Assembly (NCBI RefSeq): GCF_020723905.1
Contig: NZ_DYHZ01000007.1
Coordinates: forward strand, 41,839-105,838
Origin: Anaerolinea thermophila
GTDB lineage: Bacteria; Chloroflexota; Anaerolineae; Anaerolineales; Anaerolineaceae
Reading direction: 5' to 3'
Length of the DNA: 64,000 nt
Position 1 is the first letter of the stretch, and each line of letters begins with the position of its first letter. Below the pieces are notes generated by a model. The model had not been told where the DNA came from and did no database searches. It saw only the letters and a program-made list of their open reading frames with translations. Below are positions 3,603-21,765 of the stretch, one piece after another. The translations under genes were made by a program, and so were the position numbers.

Positions 3603-3983
3603 ATGGCGAAGATTCTGATTGCCGAAGATGAACCCGATATTCGCGATCTGGTGAAATTTACGCTTGGTTTTGCCGGGCATGAAGTCATAGCGGTGGGGAA
3701 TGGCGAGGACGCCGTTGAGGCGGCGCGCGCTGAGAAACCCGATTTAATCCTCATGGATGTGCGTATGCCGCGCATGACCGGATATGAAGCCTGTGCCGCC
3801 ATGAAAGCCGATCCTTCCATTGCCCATATTCCTGTGGTGTTCCTGTCTGCAAAAGGGCAGGAATCAGAAATTCAAACCGGGCTCAGCGTGGGGGCTTCGG
3901 AGTATTTGCTCAAGCCGTTTGCTCCCATGGAACTGGCTCAGCGGGTATCTGAACTGCTGGAAAAGTACGCAAGTAAAGGATAA
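3603..3983 (+). CDS. Single-domain CheY-like response regulator
   Basis: ILIAEDE, DLILMDVRMP (phosphoacceptor Asp), VVFLSA and YLLKPF are all intact; it starts 9 nt after the kinase. Confidence 0.95.
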   Translation: MAKILIAEDEPDIRDLVKFTLGFAGHEVIAVGNGEDAVEAARAEKPDLILMDVRMPRMTGYEACAAMKADPSIAHIPVVFLSAKGQESEIQTGLSVGASEYLLKPFAPMELAQRVSELLEKYASKG

Positions 3984-3992
3984 GGGAGAACC

Positions 3993-4781
3993 ATGAGCGC
4001 AATCCTGCTGGATGGGCAGATGGTGCATTACGAGGTGCTGGGGCGGGGTCGCCCGGTCATCTTCCTGCACGGCTGGATTGGCTCCTGGCGTTACTGGATT
4101 CCCACCATGCAGGCGGCGTCCATTGCCTACCGCACCTATGCGCTGGATTTCTGGGGCTATGGCGATAGCGCCAAGGTGCCCGAACGCTACAACCTGGATG
4201 CGCAGGTTAACCTGCTGAAAGGGTTCATGGATCAAATGGGTATGGGGCGGGTTGCGCTGATTGGGCATGGATTGGGGGCTACGGTAGCGGTGATGTTTGC
4301 TCTGCGCAACCCGGACGTTGTCGATCGCGTTCTGGCGGTATCTTATCCGCTGGATGAGTCCCGCCTTCACCCCCGTTTGCGTACCCAGTCTCCCGAAGAA
4401 CTGGTGGACTGGCTGCTGGAGCGCAATCCTACCACCGAGCCGGTGCGCGTTGAAGCCGCCAAGACCGATCCGCGAGCCATTCAGGACTCGCTGGAGGGTT
4501 TAGCCACCATTGAAGCCCACGAAGCCAGTCAAAAACTGACCTGTGCCTGTCTGCTGGTGTATGGCGAAAAAGATCCTGTTGTCCCGGCACCATCAGATGA
4601 AGTCTTCCTGAGTCTGCCGTTCCAGACCCATGGGATTGTGTTTGACCAGTCAGGACATTTTCCCATCCTGGAAGAAAGCAGTAAGTTCAATCGCCTGGTG
4701 ATGGATTTCCTTTCGCTTGGGGTGGGGGAGAGTCCACGAATGTTGCAGTTGAAGGAAGAATGGAAACGCCGTGTGCGCTAA
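3993..4781 (+). CDS. Alpha/beta-hydrolase-fold protein lacking the nucleophile Ser (GHGLG)
   Basis: HGWIGSW oxyanion loop, ALDFWGYGDS, elbow GHGLG (codon GGA at 4269-4271), GEKD acid and GHF His. An AGGGAG RBS lies upstream. Confidence 0.9.
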   Translation: MSAILLDGQMVHYEVLGRGRPVIFLHGWIGSWRYWIPTMQAASIAYRTYALDFWGYGDSAKVPERYNLDAQVNLLKGFMDQMGMGRVALIGHGLGATVAVMFALRNPDVVDRVLAVSYPLDESRLHPRLRTQSPEELVDWLLERNPTTEPVRVEAAKTDPRAIQDSLEGLATIEAHEASQKLTCACLLVYGEKDPVVPAPSDEVFLSLPFQTHGIVFDQSGHFPILEESSKFNRLVMDFLSLGVGESPRMLQLKEEWKRRVR

Positions 4782-17673: not shown

Positions 17674-18951
17674 TTACCAGCTTTCACTCCCCTTTTCCCC
17701 GGGGCGGGGGTACAGTCGGGGATGCAGGTGAGCATTGGGCAGGCGCAGGTGGTCGCTGTCTTCATAGTACAGATCGCGATCAATCACACGCCGCTCCTTG
17801 GTGGAGAAGATCACTACGTCCGACTCGATGGTGCGGGCAGGGTACACCAGCATTCCCGCGCCAATCCGGCAGTTGTGTCCCACACACCCACCCAGTACAA
17901 TGCGGTTGGAGTTGCGCAGGGCGCCCGTCCCATCTCTGGCTTTGATGGGAGCCGAAAGCAGGTTAAAATCCGTCCAGGTAGATCCTGCCCCGATGAAGGT
18001 ATTCCGTCCGACCACGCACATTTGCAGACAGGTGTTTTGGGCGATCAAACTGTTTTCCATTACCGTGGTCATGAACAGCGAGGCGCGGAAGGGCAGGAAA
18101 GTGCCATCGCCCACAACCGAAAGCATTAACTGACATCCCTGGGAGATGTTAACATTATCGCCAATGATGCAGTTCTCAATGACGGCATTGGCACCAATGG
18201 TGACATTATCGCCGATCGTGGTGGGACCGTGAATGATGGCGTCGGGGTCAATGACGCAGTTGCGTCCGATTTGCACCACTGCTGAGGAACGCAGTAATTG
18301 CCGCCCTTCATACAGGGCTGTTCCTAACACCTTTAATTTGAACCATACATCGCGGTTCAGGCGTTCCTCAAAACGGGCTCCCCGCCCGAATAATCCAAAC
18401 ACCTCGTCGGCAATGAAAATGTGTACCCAGGAGTCGATTGCCATCAGACTGCGCAAGGGCACCTGATAAACCAGGTCTCCCTGCGAGGGTGCCATATACA
18501 ACGGGATGTGGTAGTAACCAATCTCGCGGGAGAGCAGGTCAATCACCAGCGGCTCAGCGCCAGGCTCTGGACCGTTGGGATAGTACCATAAATCGGCAAG
18601 GTAAAGATTTCCCGCCGGGGTATAAGAGAGCGAGAGAGGAAGGATGTGTTCTCGAAAGCAGGGATCACTGGCATTGAAGGCGGCGCGCACGGCTTTCCCG
18701 CGTTTGCGGGCTTCCTGAATGAAGGCTTCCATGTAGGGAGCATCAAAAAACAAATTATCCCGATAGACGATGCAGGGCTCGTGGACTTGCGGCAGGGGCG
18801 CGCCGGGGGGGAGTTCGATTTCTCGGGTGGTGTATGGGGCAAGCACATCCCGTTGAAGCAGCCACAGCGGTTTATTCTGAATGCGTAAATCGCGCGCCGG
18901 TTCGTTGAACGGCACGATATGTTGGGGGTTCCGAAGGATGATTTTCAACAT
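17674..18951 (-). CDS. GlmU-like protein: degenerate nucleotidyltransferase-like N-terminus plus left-handed beta-helix
   Basis: The C-terminal half has hexapeptide repeats (IGRNCVIDPDAIIHGPTTIGDNVTIGANAVIENCIIGDNVNI). The N-terminal PFNEPARDLRIQNKPL resembles GlmU-like families but has no GxGTR motif. Confidence 0.75.
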   Translation of the reverse strand: MLKIILRNPQHIVPFNEPARDLRIQNKPLWLLQRDVLAPYTTREIELPPGAPLPQVHEPCIVYRDNLFFDAPYMEAFIQEARKRGKAVRAAFNASDPCFREHILPLSLSYTPAGNLYLADLWYYPNGPEPGAEPLVIDLLSREIGYYHIPLYMAPSQGDLVYQVPLRSLMAIDSWVHIFIADEVFGLFGRGARFEERLNRDVWFKLKVLGTALYEGRQLLRSSAVVQIGRNCVIDPDAIIHGPTTIGDNVTIGANAVIENCIIGDNVNISQGCQLMLSVVGDGTFLPFRASLFMTTVMENSLIAQNTCLQMCVVGRNTFIGAGSTWTDFNLLSAPIKARDGTGALRNSNRIVLGGCVGHNCRIGAGMLVYPARTIESDVVIFSTKERRVIDRDLYYEDSDHLRLPNAHLHPRLYPRPGEKGSESW

Positions 18952-18961
18952 GCTCGTTTAA

Positions 18962-19516
18962 TTATTCCAGCGGTTTGCGGGAAATTTCAAACCGACAGCA
19001 AGGCGCACCTTTTGTCCTGCACAAAGTTTCGCGGACGGGAAAGAACCGTCCACTGCCCACCCACTGCATGAATTCCTGAAACATTCCGGTGAGCAGGTAG
19101 CAGGTGATTGTGTTTGAATGTTCAGCGCATGCAGGTTTCTGAGTGACTTCAATCACCCAGAAATTGTCCTCTTCGCAAATGCTCATCCGCAAGGGCGCCT
19201 GTTCTTCCAGAAAACGGGCGATTTGTTCCAGTCCGACCTTGACGCGGCGATTGAAAGGCAACAGGCGATACTCCAGTGAGTACAACCCGAGTGTCTCTCC
19301 CCAGCGGCGCAGACCGGTCTGGAATCCACTCCTGCCCATGCGGATTGCCATGCCCTTACCTGTCAGACTGCCAAACCGGTCGTACAGAACACGTTCCAAG
19401 GCCTGTAAAAATTTTTTATTACCCGATAGGAAAGCCTCTTGCGGCTCAATGCCAGATACCTCATGCATGCTTTCTACCAGGATTTGATGGATTTCAGATG
19501 AAAGAATGGTCTCCAT
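18962..19516 (-). CDS. V4R (4-vinyl reductase) domain small-molecule-binding protein
   Basis: RMGRSGF, then PAC..CYLLTGMFQE..VRETLCRTKGAPCCRFEI, the V4R Cys/Glu pattern. ATG 19516 follows a GAGG immediately after the upstream stop. Confidence 0.85.
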   Translation of the reverse strand: METILSSEIHQILVESMHEVSGIEPQEAFLSGNKKFLQALERVLYDRFGSLTGKGMAIRMGRSGFQTGLRRWGETLGLYSLEYRLLPFNRRVKVGLEQIARFLEEQAPLRMSICEEDNFWVIEVTQKPACAEHSNTITCYLLTGMFQEFMQWVGSGRFFPVRETLCRTKGAPCCRFEISRKPLE

Positions 19517-19520
19517 AACC

Positions 19521-20333
19521 TCATGACTCTGCGGGAGGGATGGGCTCTGCCGGGGCATCCAGAAATTCTTTGATCTTACTCATGCACTCTTTGGGTTCGT
19601 CCAGCATGATGAAATGCCCTGCTCTGGGGAAGCGCTCAATGCGGGCATGGGGAACGCCTTTTTTGAGAGGCTCCCACTGACGGGGATGGACGATATTGTC
19701 ACGGTCTCCGTACATTCCCATCACCGGAATACGAATTTCATTCAGACGGGGGCGCAGGTCAGTGCGCCGCAGGGTGGCAATGCTGATCAGGAAGGATTCC
19801 AGCGTCGTCTGGGAGAGGTCGCGATCCATCATATCCGGAAAGCGCGGATCTTTGCAGATGGTGGGGGAGGCAATGCGCATGGCAGCGCGGAAGAGGGGGA
19901 AGAAGGTGAACAACAGCCAAGCGATGGGACGGTACCCTGCAAACTTCAGTGGTAATGCCAGCGAAGAACCCGCGATGGGCGAACCAATCACCACGACCTT
20001 TTGTGCCAGATGGGGATACTGAATCGCAACCGAAAGGCTCACTGTGCCGCCCATGGAATGCCCGATGAGCGGGGCAGAGAGGATACCCAGTTGATCCATA
20101 AATTGAGCCACCAGGCTGATGAAATCCTGCACGTTGTAGGTGTTGCGTTTGGTGCCCGATTCGCCAAATCCCCAGAAATCCAGCGCATAGGTGCGGTAAT
20201 ACTGTCCCAGAAAGGTCATGGTTTCCTGCCAGAGTCCCCACGAACCCAGCCATCCGTGTAAGAGGATGACGGGACGTCCACGCCCATACACTTCATAGTG
20301 AAGGATGCCCTGATCGGTAGTGATGGATGACAA
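19521..20333 (-). CDS. Alpha/beta hydrolase with an intact Ser-Asp-His triad
   Basis: HGWLGSW, ALDFWGFGES, GHSMG, GDRD, GHF; TTG start. Confidence 0.92.
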   Translation of the reverse strand: MSSITTDQGILHYEVYGRGRPVILLHGWLGSWGLWQETMTFLGQYYRTYALDFWGFGESGTKRNTYNVQDFISLVAQFMDQLGILSAPLIGHSMGGTVSLSVAIQYPHLAQKVVVIGSPIAGSSLALPLKFAGYRPIAWLLFTFFPLFRAAMRIASPTICKDPRFPDMMDRDLSQTTLESFLISIATLRRTDLRPRLNEIRIPVMGMYGDRDNIVHPRQWEPLKKGVPHARIERFPRAGHFIMLDEPKECMSKIKEFLDAPAEPIPPAES

Positions 20334-20355
20334 GGTCCCCCCTTTGGAACAGGAA

Positions 20356-20895
20356 TTACTTCCCGCCCTCTTCCATTTCAGCCAGAATGGAGTAAAGCAG
20401 TTCCAGCAGGACGTTCTTGACCGATTCCTTCTTGTGGGCTACACAGGGGAGGAGTTTGGCTTTGGGTTCCAGACGTAACGCCAGGCGCATATCCTCCAGG
20501 TCCCAGGCGTCGGGCAGGTCCTGCTTGTTGGCGGCAACCACGTATGGGGTGGGAGCATAGGCGCGGAAGGTTTGCAGGATACTGCGTGCTTCGCGGAAGG
20601 TTTCGGGACGGGTGCTGTCTACCATGACGATAAAGCCCAGCATCCCTTCTGAGAGAATTTCCCACATGAAATCAAACCGCCGCTGTCCCGGTGTGCCAAA
20701 CAGGTAAAGCACCAGATCGTCATCTACGGTGATGCGTCCAAAATCCATGGCGACGGTCGTGGTTTCTTTGACGCGCTCGGCATCCGAAGAAATTTTACGC
20801 TCGGTGGAGACAACATCAATCTCACTGACCGACCGGATGAAGGCTGTCTTGCCAGCGCTGAAGGGACCTGTGACTACCATCTTAACCGTTTGCAT
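20356..20895 (-). CDS. Small Ras-like GTPase of the MglA/CvnD type
   Basis: G1 GPFSAGKT, switch I TTTVAMDFG, G3 FGTPGQ, G4 ANKQD, G5 PCVA. Confidence 0.92.
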   Translation of the reverse strand: MQTVKMVVTGPFSAGKTAFIRSVSEIDVVSTERKISSDAERVKETTTVAMDFGRITVDDDLVLYLFGTPGQRRFDFMWEILSEGMLGFIVMVDSTRPETFREARSILQTFRAYAPTPYVVAANKQDLPDAWDLEDMRLALRLEPKAKLLPCVAHKKESVKNVLLELLYSILAEMEEGGK

Positions 20896-20934
20896 GAGTG
20901 CTTATCCTAACTCCATGATGAATAGAATAAAGGA

Positions 20935-21765
20935 TTATAAGGAGCGAATCCGGTTGATCAACCGATTCACCAGTGATTTCTGTTCTTCTTTGTCCGGGGT
21001 GGGGAACTGGCGCACCGTTTGCTGTGCAGGGGGGCGGGGTGCCGGCGCACCTTCCGGTCGGACAATTTCCACCAGCCCGGCTTGAATTAATCCATATACC
21101 ACCCGGCGAATTTCCAGGTCGTTCATCTTGGTGGCGCGGGCAATTTGCCGGATGGTATTCCTGGGGTTGACATACGAGACAACCCGCCACTCTTCCAGGC
21201 TGAGGTTGACTTTTTGAATGTTGGTGCCGGGGCGGTCTGTAAATTTCAACGCCATATCCAGACTGGGAATTTCTTCCTGCAATTGCTCCCACTCGCGCAA
21301 CTGCCTTGCGCCTTCAATGATCAGGTTTTCCAGATCCATGCGGATGGTGATTTTGCCATCCGGTGGGGTGACATCCTGATCGAAGCGGAAGAAGCCTTCA
21401 ACCCACGTGAACAACCGGCGCACCACATCAATGAAATAGGTCTGCAAACTGGTGAGGATGTCATCCTGCGTCAGGTAACCGGCGTTGATGAGAAGCAAAC
21501 CGAGTTCTTTATCGGTCATGCTGGAGGCGCGTTCCAGCAAGAGGCGGTACTGGCTCTGGGAGATTTTGCGAGTCTTGTACAGAATGGATGCCAGACTGCC
21601 GTCCTCGTTGCCCAGTTGGGCATAAGCCAGTTTACCCTGCCGGAAATTGATCCGGGCTGTTTCACCGGGTCCTTCAATGACCAGGAGTCCGGTCTTTTGA
21701 GCCAGATTAATCAAATTGAGCAATTGGGTAATGGTAAAATCGCGCAGGTTTCCTTTTAACGCCAT
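20935..21765 (-). CDS. DUF4388 (PATAN) domain protein with a helical insertion and a C-terminal winged-HTH-like domain
   Basis: MALKGNLRDFTITQLLNLINLAQKTGLL..INFRQGKLAYA and WVEGFFRF (PATAN). C-terminal LSLEEWRVVSYVN..IRQIARAT..VYGLIQAGLVEIV. Confidence 0.88.
   Translation of the reverse strand: MALKGNLRDFTITQLLNLINLAQKTGLLVIEGPGETARINFRQGKLAYAQLGNEDGSLASILYKTRKISQSQYRLLLERASSMTDKELGLLLINAGYLTQDDILTSLQTYFIDVVRRLFTWVEGFFRFDQDVTPPDGKITIRMDLENLIIEGARQLREWEQLQEEIPSLDMALKFTDRPGTNIQKVNLSLEEWRVVSYVNPRNTIRQIARATKMNDLEIRRVVYGLIQAGLVEIVRPEGAPAPRPPAQQTVRQFPTPDKEEQKSLVNRLINRIRSL

Follow-up and report, generated by a model that had tools for sequence, protein, structure and literature searches.

How should an alpha/beta-hydrolase-fold protein that lacks a catalytic nucleophile be understood when its gene closes an operon for a giant histidine kinase? 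This question is raised by an open reading frame near the start of the window, by which we mean the whole 64,000-nucleotide stretch of DNA that was analyzed. We refer to its product as ABH*, a name of our own for the tail-bearing hydrolase-fold family that includes the product of ORF 3993-4781. The gene, its salient sites, and the genes directly upstream are as follows.

3993..4781, plus strand: ABH* ORF, encoding a 262-aa alpha/beta-hydrolase-fold protein with no nucleophile, in a frame free of stops
4263..4277, plus strand: nucleophile elbow G91-H92-G93-L94-G95, with the Gly93 codon GGA at 4269-4271
4572..4574, plus strand: catalytic-acid position Asp194, retained and aligned with the acid of the active paralog
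4656..4658, plus strand: catalytic His222, retained in the motif G-H-F-P and aligned with the His of the active paralog
4743..4778, plus strand: tail L-Q-L-K-E-E-W-K-R-R-V-R, residues 251-262, a proposed docking helix
1..3593, plus strand: histidine kinase, C-terminal 1,197 codons of 2,323 aa, with about ten GAF domains, PAS, HisKA, and HATPase_c
3603..3983, plus strand: single-domain CheY-like receiver of 126 aa (Pfam Response_reg, 6.6e-29)
3984..3992, plus strand: intergenic 9 nt with the Shine-Dalgarno sequence GGGAGA, directly after the TAA stop of the receiver

ABH* has the hydrolase fold. Pfam places it in Abhydrolase_1 (1.3e-20, 74.6 bits against a cut-off of 25.8) and Abhydrolase_6 (1.3e-17, 65.6 bits), and a Foldseek search of the PDB with the AlphaFold2 monomer model (pLDDT 85.9, pTM 0.89) returned 1,650 matches at E<=1e-3, with TM scores of up to 0.80. 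All of the PDB matches listed are hydrolase folds, with generic esterases and C-C hydrolases at a TM of about 0.79. When the PDB was searched by sequence and by fold, no specific solved relative of ABH* emerged, and the matches were confined to generic esterases, C-C hydrolases, and epoxide hydrolases. A PADLOC search for defense systems gave 0 matches for ABH* or for its paralog ABHser, which is described below.

The preliminary description of this DNA had read the nucleophile elbow as GHGLG, with a glycine encoded by GGA at 4269, and our codon reading is identical. It had also proposed that orthologs be aligned to learn whether this glycine is conserved. The glycine is not private, as evidenced by its presence in 120/120 of the best ABH* homologs (60 to 94% identity) and by the use of all four GGN codons: across approximately 100 orthologs, Gly93 is encoded by GGC in 37, GGG in 20, GGA in 13, and GGT in 12. 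A private mutation or a read error is ruled out by the same data.

Beyond these closest homologs, the elbow is far from uniform. On a 165-sequence tree, which was obtained by a quick IQ-TREE search without bootstraps, the residue switches among Gly, Ala, Ser, Asp, Asn, and Thr, with at least 30 changes. The window protein belongs to a well-supported clade of 76 sequences, in which the elbow is Gly in 53, Asp in 13, Asn in 5, and Ser in 5. In a basal ABH* branch (n = 118), it is Ala in 59, Ser in 51, Thr in 7, and Gly in 1; the tail is present in all but 4 of these sequences, and Asp and His are kept in all of them. Depending on the branch, about 15 to 45% of tail-bearing relatives have a complete Ser-Asp-His triad, and therefore the family may be enzymatic in some lineages. 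The term "dead copy" from the preliminary description thus suits the window's own lineage, where the glycine is conserved, but not the family, since some tail-bearing relatives possess Ser together with Asp and His. That the family is uniformly dead is ruled out by relatives whose elbow residue is Ser, Ala, Thr, Asp, or Asn.

The other catalytic positions have been retained. Among 101 Chloroflexota orthologs, 95 have Asp at the position of Asp194 and 100 have His at that of His222, and the family as a whole retains both residues in about 95% or more of its members. Asn or Thr at the Asp194 position is confined to the clade that has Asp as its elbow residue; within this genus-level clade, Asp or Asn replaces Gly at the elbow, and most Asp-elbow members have lost Asp194 (to Asn or Thr). 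With the exception of the nucleophile, the active-site frame is near-invariant (H26-G27-W28, G91-H92-x-L94-G95, D194, and H222-F223-P224), and the oxyanion-loop residues are nearly invariant. Compared with a serine hydrolase, ABH* therefore has the acid and the histidine and is without a Ser, Cys, or Asp nucleophile in an sm-x-Nu-x-sm elbow. Because glycine at the elbow makes covalent serine catalysis impossible, ABH* of the window's lineage, as predicted from its sequence, cannot be a classical serine hydrolase. Moreover, the elbow drifts among small residues family-wide, which argues that the nucleophile is dispensable for whatever function has been conserved. The near-invariance of Asp194, His222, and the oxyanion loop goes beyond the needs of a pure scaffold, so ligand binding or His/Asp chemistry is possible.

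The operon encodes, in order, a receiver protein with a degenerate GGDEF domain, the 2,323-aa multi-GAF kinase, the small receiver, and ABH*. ABH* is accordingly the fourth and last gene and not the third, as had been stated before the receiver-GGDEF gene that precedes the kinase was counted. The kinase gene begins 3,379 nt before position 1 of the window (own genome, L054:14461-18999). Its product matches GAF_2 (3.9e-60), HisKA (5e-22), and HATPase_c (7.5e-29) in Pfam; GAF domains make up the N-terminal 1,500 aa, and a single PAS domain lies just before HisKA. The acidic pocket of the small receiver is intact (D9/E10, D52, S82, and K104). Gaps of 9 nt separate both the kinase from the receiver and the receiver from ABH*, and a search for promoter-like sites between the operon genes found none; the short gaps suggest that kinase, receiver, and ABH* are co-transcribed. 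This context is conserved. In 78/80 Anaerolineales loci, ABH* directly follows the receiver (62 to 84% identical) and the multi-GAF kinase, and in 20/20 loci sampled phylum-wide, it lies downstream of a multi-GAF kinase, with or without the receiver. The kinase and ABH* are also neighbors in four further lineages of the phylum at family level, and a long-form ABH* relative has the same kinase context. The receiver and ABH* ORFs are in frame in 50 of approximately 98 loci, and a programmed read-through fusion was considered and rejected: because the in-frame loci are related and the Shine-Dalgarno sequence is strong, translational coupling is the simpler reading.

The C-terminal tail is the best-conserved segment of ABH*, with a mean column conservation of 0.90, versus 0.47 for the cap. 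The window protein ends in ...LQLKEEWKRRVR, and the family signature, [LIV]-K-[ED]-E-W-[KR]-R-R-x-R, is near-invariant. The pattern [LIV]-K-[ED]-x-W-x-R-R-x-R occurs in about 135/164 representatives and loci and in all 80 Anaerolineales species loci, and only once in the 3.29-Mb genome. None of L251, W257, R259, R260, and R262 varies across 80 species, in which each is encoded by 5 to 6 synonymous codons (one for W). Retention of these residues through saturated synonymous change demonstrates, at the codon level, that the tail is under purifying selection. The charged tail noted in the preliminary description is therefore present, and it matters. Its pattern is amphipathic, basic, and helical, and in the AlphaFold2 monomer its pLDDT is below 50 (about 48). 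As a probe of whether the tail docks on the receiver, the receiver-ABH* read-through fusion was modeled with AlphaFold2 using 38 paired sequences (pTM 0.67), and the pLDDT of the tail went only from about 48 to 66. Lineages that have no small receiver between the kinase and ABH* still keep the tail, and therefore that receiver cannot be its sole partner. The possibility that the tail binds c-di-GMP supplied by the GGDEF protein of the operon was set aside: the GGDEF motif is degenerate (GGDNF in the window's genome and SNDTF in genome G250), and there is no RxxD site.

A second locus in the window encodes the closest paralog of ABH* beside a small GTPase.

17674..21765, minus strand: GTPase module, from DUF4388/PATAN to LbH (Pfam matches)
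20935-21765, minus strand: DUF4388/PATAN gene (Pfam)
20356-20895, minus strand: Ras/MglA-like GTPase (Pfam ATP_bind_1 [PF03029]/Ras)
19521..20333, minus strand: ABHser, a 270-aa paralog with GHSMG and an intact Ser-Asp-His triad, third gene of the GTPase operon
18962-19558, minus strand: V4R gene, which adjoins ABHser (Pfam)
17674-18951, minus strand: GlmU-like LbH protein (Pfam)

The location of this paralog and its GHSMG motif had been given correctly, but not its strand, which is minus; the plus frame is full of stops. ABHser and ABH* are 32% identical (E 1e-40), and a pairwise alignment bears out the motifs said to be common to both, HGW(I/L)GSW, TYALDFWG(Y/F)G(D/E)S, and GHF. The closest tail-less relatives of ABH* all have GHSMG with Asp and His, and on the tree, a branch with an SH-aLRT of 94 separates the 159 tail-bearing sequences from 6 GHSMG outgroup sequences. 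ABH* arose by duplication of ABHser within the same ancestral signaling cluster.

The genes of both loci are collinear on one strand, in the order DUF4388-GTPase-ABH(Ser)-V4R-LbH-receiver/GGDEF-kinase-receiver-ABH*, in at least 35 other genomes of the Chloroflexota, and G250 too has all nine genes in a collinear cluster. Among 401 genomes of the phylum, 64 encode ABH*, 66 have the LbH gene, and 71 have the GTPase, and 64/64 genomes with ABH* also hold the LbH gene and the GTPase. Eight small genomes from the window's own family contain none of the three. The LbH gene is present without a strong ABH* match in G002 and G015; the second match in G002 is an unrelated fusion of a Ser hydrolase to GNAT, and the Roadblock-V4R-LbH-ABHser cluster of this genome sits on a 5.4-kb contig. 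Because of the collinearity in at least 35 genomes and the 64/64 co-occurrence, the kinase and GTPase operons belong together, and the link that the preliminary description drew between the two loci is supported. In the window, the GTPase module is on the opposite strand, and genes for Opp and thiamine transporters lie between the loci, an arrangement that the gene orders mark as a derived split of the collinear cluster. The spacing of 13 to 15 kb between ABH* and ABHser was also considered as a functional distance and rejected, since the similar spacing of 12 to 13 kb in the sister family of Anaerolineales is the length of the collinear cluster.

We propose that ABH* is probably a nucleophile-independent accessory subunit of the kinase/GTPase pathway, serving as an adaptor or receptor that docks via its tail and would have no enzymatic activity of its own. 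The folded core, which has kept the oxyanion-loop, His, and Asp regions, would supply a binding surface or pocket. The tail would dock onto a partner, with the receiver, the kinase, and the Ras-like GTPase module as candidates, and docking would either tether ABH* to the flow of the signal or modulate that flow. Relatives without the tail form direct fusions with TIR or CHAT domains, which fits a portable binding module.

A bolder version of this proposal, which we consider speculative and rather unlikely, is that the ABH* adaptor physically couples the two-component phosphorelay to the Ras/MglA-like GTPase switch. The W-x-R-R-x-R tail would dock on the GTPase or on one of its partners (PATAN, V4R, or LbH), or would give one or more arginines to it, and a change in the state of the receiver or the kinase would trigger this action. 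The role of the tail arginines would be analogous to that of the C-terminal LPxR motif of conservon kinases (PMC4316618). If this version is true, ABH* would become the first pseudo-hydrolase of bacteria known to link histidine kinase with small-GTPase signaling, and TIR and CHAT effectors would have adopted the same Gly-type module as their sensor domain.

Other explanations for ABH* have to be weighed against the accessory subunit. One is a decaying or neutral relic, in which the glycine is a sequencing artifact or a private mutation, or the gene has no function and is on its way to becoming a pseudogene. The missing serine, and nothing else, speaks for it; we regard it as already refuted, and its probability as negligible, given the intact reading frame, the glycine in 120/120 of the closest homologs with its four codons, and the invariance of the tail under saturated synonymous change. 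Moreover, identity among ABH* proteins has been held at 50 to 69% across an order and 35 to 43% across classes, and ABH* has been under purifying selection since the divergence of classes within Chloroflexota, the only phylum in which the family has so far been seen. The same long-standing selection could be cited for an enzyme that works without a nucleophile by using the His-Asp pair as a general base, such as a decarboxylase, a lyase, a cofactor-free oxygenase, or a water-activating hydrolase. Tomato MKS1 and the HOD/QDO dioxygenases are precedents for nucleophile-independent activity. Retention of Asp and His in about 95% or more of the family, with small residues alone at the elbow, would suit such chemistry. 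However, a charged Asp or a polar Asn replaces Gly in one genus-level clade, which is unlikely to be neutral beside a catalytic base, and Asp194 itself has gone in most of the Asp-elbow members of that clade. The cap is variable and broken by disordered insertions, and no metabolic gene adjoins ABH*, whose context is purely signaling. We therefore hold a nucleophile-independent enzyme to be improbable.

A small-molecule receptor would bind in its pocket, without cleavage, the substrate of ABHser, as the preliminary description had supposed, or a related compound. It would then report occupancy to the kinase pathway in the manner of GID1, or of a D14, KAI2, or RsbQ that did not hydrolyze its ligand. 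ABH* and ABHser are mutual closest relatives from one ancestral cluster, the active-site frame is near-invariant apart from the nucleophile, and the V4R domain, whose annotation is small-molecule binding, adjoins ABHser. Receptors with the hydrolase fold are established too, for example, RsbQ with butenolides (bioRxiv 10.1101/2023.12.05.570042) and the RsbQ-PAS modules (PMC3183031). Nevertheless, the pocket-shaping cap, which defines the substrate, is just 13% identical between the paralogs and is 18 residues shorter in ABH*, and this divergence weakens the idea of a shared molecule. The cap is also the least conserved region of the family (mean column conservation of 0.47, with 3% of columns at >=0.9), and in orthologs with the same gene context it takes disordered, low-complexity insertions of 70 to 250 aa. 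Finally, the residue at the elbow, whose side chain projects into the pocket, differs between closely related proteins (Gly, Ala, Ser, Thr, Asp, or Asn). We view a receptor for the ABHser substrate or a related compound as a tentative alternative with a minor share of the probability.

Hydrolase folds that signal rather than catalyze are well known in plants and animals. To our knowledge, RsbQ is the only bacterial case that has been studied, and it is still triad-dependent. ABH* is a bacterial family, phylum-wide in range, whose nucleophile is dispensable; repeated losses of it contrast with the 12-residue tail and the position in the operon, both of which have been fixed since the divergence of classes within Chloroflexota. 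It thus offers a natural experiment on an enzyme turning into a signaling subunit. It also provides a handle on an undescribed nine-gene system of filamentous Chloroflexota with a giant multi-GAF kinase and a Ras-like GTPase: literature searches returned nothing specific on the nine-gene cluster, the ABH* family, or a hydrolase-fold component of such clusters. The invariant tail residues W257, R259, R260, and R262 are easily mutated.

Among known systems, RsbQ-RsbP(PAS) of Bacillus subtilis, together with 45 homologous pairs, constitutes a bipartite sensing module (PMC3183031; bioRxiv 10.1101/2023.12.05.570042). RsbQ is a receptor for butenolides (bioRxiv 10.1101/2023.12.05.570042); the RsbQ-PAS modules are coupled to kinases and require an intact triad for signaling (PMC3183031). 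A further mark of these modules is that the hydrolase touches the PAS domain directly. Like RsbQ, ABH* is a stand-alone hydrolase-fold protein encoded in an operon with a signaling protein, with a histidine kinase or GGDEF domain as a possible output, and each would be an input or accessory part of a pathway and not a metabolic enzyme. However, RsbQ needs its triad and hydrolyzes butenolides, whereas ABH* has no nucleophile. The rsbQ gene lies immediately upstream of the N-terminal PAS domain of its partner, whereas ABH* comes last, behind the kinase and receiver genes; neither the intact triad nor the position upstream of an N-terminal-PAS partner, by which RsbQ-PAS pairs are recognized, is found for ABH*. 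The N terminus of its kinase consists of GAF domains and that of the RsbQ partner is an RsbP-type PAS domain, and RsbQ has no conserved basic C-terminal tail of the kind present in ABH*. RsbQ was also absent among the 50 PDB fold matches listed for ABH*.

The plant receptors KAI2 and D14, which are homologs of RsbQ, appear at ranks 36 to 48 of those 50 matches, below generic esterases, with TM scores of 0.71 to 0.76, so that the likeness in fold is only generic. D14/KAI2, GID1, and ABH* share the alpha/beta-hydrolase fold and a signaling role, which for ABH* is proposed. In the D14/KAI2/GID1 group, the signal is carried by protein-protein interactions and not by product release. GID1 signals without catalysis, and it keeps Ser and loses His; in contrast, ABH* loses Ser and keeps His and Asp. 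D14 and KAI2 keep Ser-His-Asp and hydrolyze their ligand, a reaction coupled to a conformational change, whereas ABH*, without Ser, is not a receptor-enzyme of this type. The Foldseek alignments show 13 to 19% identity between the plant receptors and ABH*, with no specific sequence relationship, and the ABH* cap is poorly conserved.

Animal hydrolase folds without a nucleophile include the neuroligins (with Gly at the elbow), NDRG, and CGI-58/ABHD5, which have adhesion, adaptor, and co-activator roles. ABH* resembles these pseudoenzymes in that the catalytic Ser has been replaced and the fold kept. Nevertheless, they are eukaryotic proteins from unrelated subfamilies with other partners, and none is known to have a tie to two-component systems or the ABH* tail.

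The gene cluster as a whole is best compared with the actinobacterial conservon, which consists of the kinase CvnA, the Roadblock protein CvnB, the DUF742 protein CvnC, and the GTPase CvnD, and with the MglA group 5 GTPases, which have PATAN neighbors (PMC4316618). No Roadblock or DUF742 gene is found in the two loci of the window, which thus do not constitute the four-gene conservon, and this GTPase survey reports no hydrolase-fold component, with "hydrolase" occurring 0 times (PMC4316618). The likeness lies in the pairing of a Ras/MglA-like GTPase with a histidine kinase and in the PATAN/DUF4388 gene beside the GTPase. Unlike the conservon kinase, the kinase of the ABH* cluster is a soluble, giant multi-GAF protein. 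Conservon kinases bear a conserved C-terminal Arg motif, LPxR (PMC4316618), which recalls the ABH* tail but is on the kinase itself, whereas the Arg-rich motif here is borne by a separate protein, ABH*.

The open reading frame at 3993-4781 on the plus strand translates into 262 amino acids with an alpha/beta-hydrolase fold, as evidenced by matches to the Pfam models Abhydrolase_1 (1.3e-20) and Abhydrolase_6 (1.3e-17); no NCBIfam model scored above its cut-off for this frame. As the preliminary description stated, the nucleophile elbow reads G-H-G-L-G, with Gly93 encoded by GGA at 4269-4271. Two further active-site residues are present in the protein:

4572-4574, plus strand: Asp194
4656-4658, plus strand: His222

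The active-type paralogue, here called ABHser, also exists with its GHSMG elbow at 19521-20333, on the minus strand. The two proteins are 32% identical (E 1e-40), and pairwise alignment showed that all of the motifs earlier listed for the pair are common to both. An AlphaFold2 model gave a confident canonical core (pLDDT 85.9, pTM 0.89). When the PDB was searched by fold (Foldseek) and by sequence, the matches listed were generic esterases, meta-cleavage hydrolases, epoxide hydrolases, or haloperoxidases, with KAI2 and D14 lower in the list, and included no solved or characterized close relative.

The nearest named relative is an Anaerolinea thermophila protein at 94% identity, and the best homologues (60 to 94% identity, almost all exactly 262 amino acids) carry GHG[LF]G in 120 of 120 cases. 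Taxonomic names here follow the titles of the matched records. Among about 100 locus-derived orthologues, Gly93 is encoded by GGC (37), GGG (20), GGA (13), and GGT (12), and therefore Gly has been retained through saturating synonymous change. These homologues and the four GGN codons exclude a read error or a private mutation as its source; in the window's lineage, a side chain is absent at the nucleophile position. Family-wide, however, the elbow residue varies.

Within Anaerolineales, the elbow reads GHSLG in one genus (with Asp and His), GHDLG in one clade, and GHNLG in another. In most members of the GHDLG clade, Asp194 is replaced by Asn or Thr, which suggests that the partner of His may have been swapped and not merely lost. 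The replacement occurs at loci L023-L025, L027, L028, L041, L042, L121, L125, and L126, and Asp194 is kept in L111 and L115. Across tail-bearing representatives at 50% identity plus the loci, the elbow residue is G in 87, S in 21, A in 12, D in 9, and T in 2; on the basal branch, with named sources in Chloroflexi, Thermoflexia, and Anaerolineae, the counts are A 59, S 51, T 7, and G 1. When 159 tail-bearing sequences were placed with 6 GHSMG outgroups on a maximum-likelihood tree (165 in all; rapid search, branch support by SH-aLRT alone), at least 30 changes were required at this position. The clade that contains the window protein is well supported and numbers 76 sequences, with 53 G, 13 D, 5 N, and 5 S at the elbow; its ancestral state was likely Gly, while Ser, Ala, and Gly are mixed in the basal branches. 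Some 95% or more of all members keep Asp194 and His222. That the elbow drifts while these residues stay argues that the family can function without the nucleophile but not without the remainder of the active-site frame.

The charged C-terminal tail was noticed in the preliminary description but undervalued, as it defines the family. Residues 251-262 have a mean column conservation of 0.90; the N-terminal core reaches 0.71, the C-terminal core 0.62, and the cap 0.47. The tail aligns as G-x-S-P-x-x-L-Q-L-K-E-E-W-K-R-R-V-R-COOH; the wider-family consensus is [LIV]-K-[ED]-x-W-x-R-R-x-R, and other classes of the phylum have a longer version, I-K-E-E-W-R-R-R-V-x-Q-R-E-Y-L. L251, W257, R259, R260, and R262 are invariant in 80 Anaerolineales species, with Leu and Arg each specified by five or six codons, so selection acts on the protein rather than on an element in the RNA or DNA. 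The 3.29-Mb genome contains a single instance of the pattern E-W-x-R-R-x-R-stop. Judging from conservation, the tail and the His, Asp, and oxyanion regions are under strong selection and the cap is under weak selection. A decaying gene is excluded by the intact frame, the Gly in every best homologue, and a tail that is invariant under synonymous change.

Residues 253-262 fall below pLDDT 50 in the AlphaFold2 model, which therefore does not place the tail confidently on the core. Every third or fourth position of the tail is hydrophobic (M/L-L-W-V), with Glu and Lys/Arg on either side, a spacing typical of an amphipathic helix that may serve in docking. Long forms of 330 to 500 amino acids (P0167, P0155, P0194, P0143, and L140:8424-9584) contain Pro/Ala/Ser/Thr-rich low-complexity insertions of 70 to 250 amino acids that follow roughly residue 122, where the cap begins, and retain the tail and the giant-kinase/receiver context. 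In one of 386 amino acids with such an insertion in the cap, the kinase-receiver-hydrolase order is unchanged.

Upstream of the hydrolase-fold gene lie a histidine kinase gene and then a single-domain receiver (3603-3983), with gaps of 9 nt each. A ribosome-binding site, GGGAGA, directly follows the receiver stop codon, and no promoter-like site was found between the genes of this operon. Reading the assembly upstream of the window gave a full kinase of 2,323 amino acids with about ten GAF domains, one PAS domain, HisKA, and HATPase. The operon begins 18 nt upstream of the kinase with a receiver-GGDEF gene (L054:13540-14442; G000:C4:37539-38441), so the hydrolase-fold gene is fourth and last, not third as previously described. 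Because the GGDEF signature is degenerate (GGDNF in this genome, SNDTF in G250 at L055:6712-7605) and no RxxD site was found, the encoded protein is probably not a diguanylate cyclase.

The receiver (62 to 84% identical) and a multi-GAF kinase are directly upstream in 78 of 80 Anaerolineales species loci, and the kinase adjoins the hydrolase-fold gene in all 20 loci spread over the phylum. The small receiver between them is present in Anaerolineae and one other lineage and absent in three others. The receiver and hydrolase-fold frames are in phase in 50 of about 98 loci (window 3603-4781; L034-L053, L060-L139), a count inflated by relatedness, and in several loci the receiver stop codon abuts the ATG. 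This junction looks like translational coupling; beyond the shared frame, these loci gave no support for a read-through fusion.

In at least 35 loci, the genes of the window's GTPase operon lie directly upstream of the kinase operon on the same strand, in a nine-gene order: DUF4388(PATAN), Ras/MglA-like GTPase, ABHser, V4R, GlmU-like LbH, receiver-GGDEF, kinase, receiver, and the tail-bearing hydrolase-fold gene. In the window, the first five have an inverted orientation and are separated from the kinase operon by genes for oligopeptide and thiamine transporters. The collinear cluster argues that the window's arrangement is a derived split. Among 401 genomes of the phylum, 64 carry the tail-bearing gene, 66 the LbH gene, and 71 the GTPase gene, and all 64 fall within both other sets; 330 lack all three, and 335 lack the tail-bearing and LbH genes (Fisher's exact test for these two, 1e-72, uncorrected for phylogeny). 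Operon position is fixed and linkage to the GTPase module is established, and the earlier idea of one pathway spanning both loci is thus well supported, if indirectly, by conserved neighborhood and co-occurrence (64 of 64 genomes).

Eight genomes of 2.0 to 2.8 Mb from the window's own family (G076, G130, G148, G184, G202, G242, G266, and G394) have none of the three genes and have lost the whole system as a unit. The two genomes that carry LbH but gave no strong hit to the tail-bearing gene, G002 and G015, show the order Roadblock-V4R-LbH-ABHser on a short contig. In G002, from another family (L146; G002:C347:1-5443), the contig is 5.4 kb long and encodes, all on one strand, Roadblock/LC7-like, V4R, LbH, and a Ser-type hydrolase (GHSTG); no tail-bearing copy was found in this genome. 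Within the order, identity is much lower for the kinase (35 to 69%) and the tail-bearing protein (46 to 69%) than for LbH (17674-18951, minus strand; 68 to 78%) and the GTPase (20356-20895, minus strand; 83 to 90%).

Among 1.84 billion proteins, only 156 representative clusters match at E<=1e-30, and the nearest tail-less relatives of the tail-bearing family are GHSMG proteins of the ABHser type. Between the paralogues, the N-terminal core is 46% identical, the C-terminal core 21%, and the cap 13%; the cap is 18 residues shorter in the tail-bearing protein. The simplest history would be duplication of an active hydrolase within the cluster, then gain of the tail, then repeated loss of the nucleophile. 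Other tail-less relatives are fused to TIR (at either end) or CHAT, all with elbow Gly, Asp, and His. The metagenomic fusions P0136, P0170, P0219, P0224, and P0217 (loci L143 and L144) are 38 to 47% identical to the Gly-type module and have a GHG[LFI]G elbow, and their TIR parts match Thoeris/argonaute-associated TIR models in PADLOC. These fusions fit a portable binding module, wired by a tail or by fusion.

We propose that the protein works without covalent catalysis, as an accessory subunit whose tail would dock on a partner in the kinase/GTPase pathway. The co-translated receiver was the most obvious candidate, and since its frame is in phase with the hydrolase-fold frame, a read-through fusion was modeled with 38 paired orthologous sequences; the single-chain model scored pLDDT 87.9 but pTM 0.67, and tail pLDDT rose only from about 48 to 66. 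The tail is retained in lineages without the small receiver, which makes the partner more likely a component common to all lineages: the kinase, the receiver-GGDEF protein, or proteins of the GTPase module. The reading in the preliminary description, that the protein is a receptor binding what ABHser cleaves, is plausible given the retained active-site frame and the precedent of RsbQ, D14, and KAI2 (PMC3183031; bioRxiv 10.1101/2023.12.05.570042), but it loses weight because the cap is divergent, variable, and tolerant of insertions and the elbow side chain drifts. An enzyme using His/Asp as a general base is possible but unlikely, as Gly-Asp-Asn exchanges beside that base and a purely signaling context fit it poorly. 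Overall, the earlier observation holds and its interpretation stands in part: the Gly is conserved and the two loci are linked, but the elbow is not fixed and the third-gene position was incorrect.

Literature searches yielded no description of the family or of the nine-gene cluster. On the GTPase side, the window resembles MglA group 5 with PATAN neighbors; its resemblance to the actinobacterial conservon is looser. No hydrolase-fold component is mentioned in the survey in which the MglA groups were defined (PMC4316618). Functionally, the nearest analogue is the RsbQ-PAS module, which differs in its defining triad, as the tail-bearing protein has no nucleophile, and in a gene order beside an N-terminal PAS that is not found at this locus. 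The gene belongs to an undescribed family, found to date in Chloroflexota alone, whose members are tail-bearing hydrolase-fold proteins and probable signaling partners that can dispense with the nucleophile; it is a variation on the hydrolase-fold receptors and pseudoenzymes already known.
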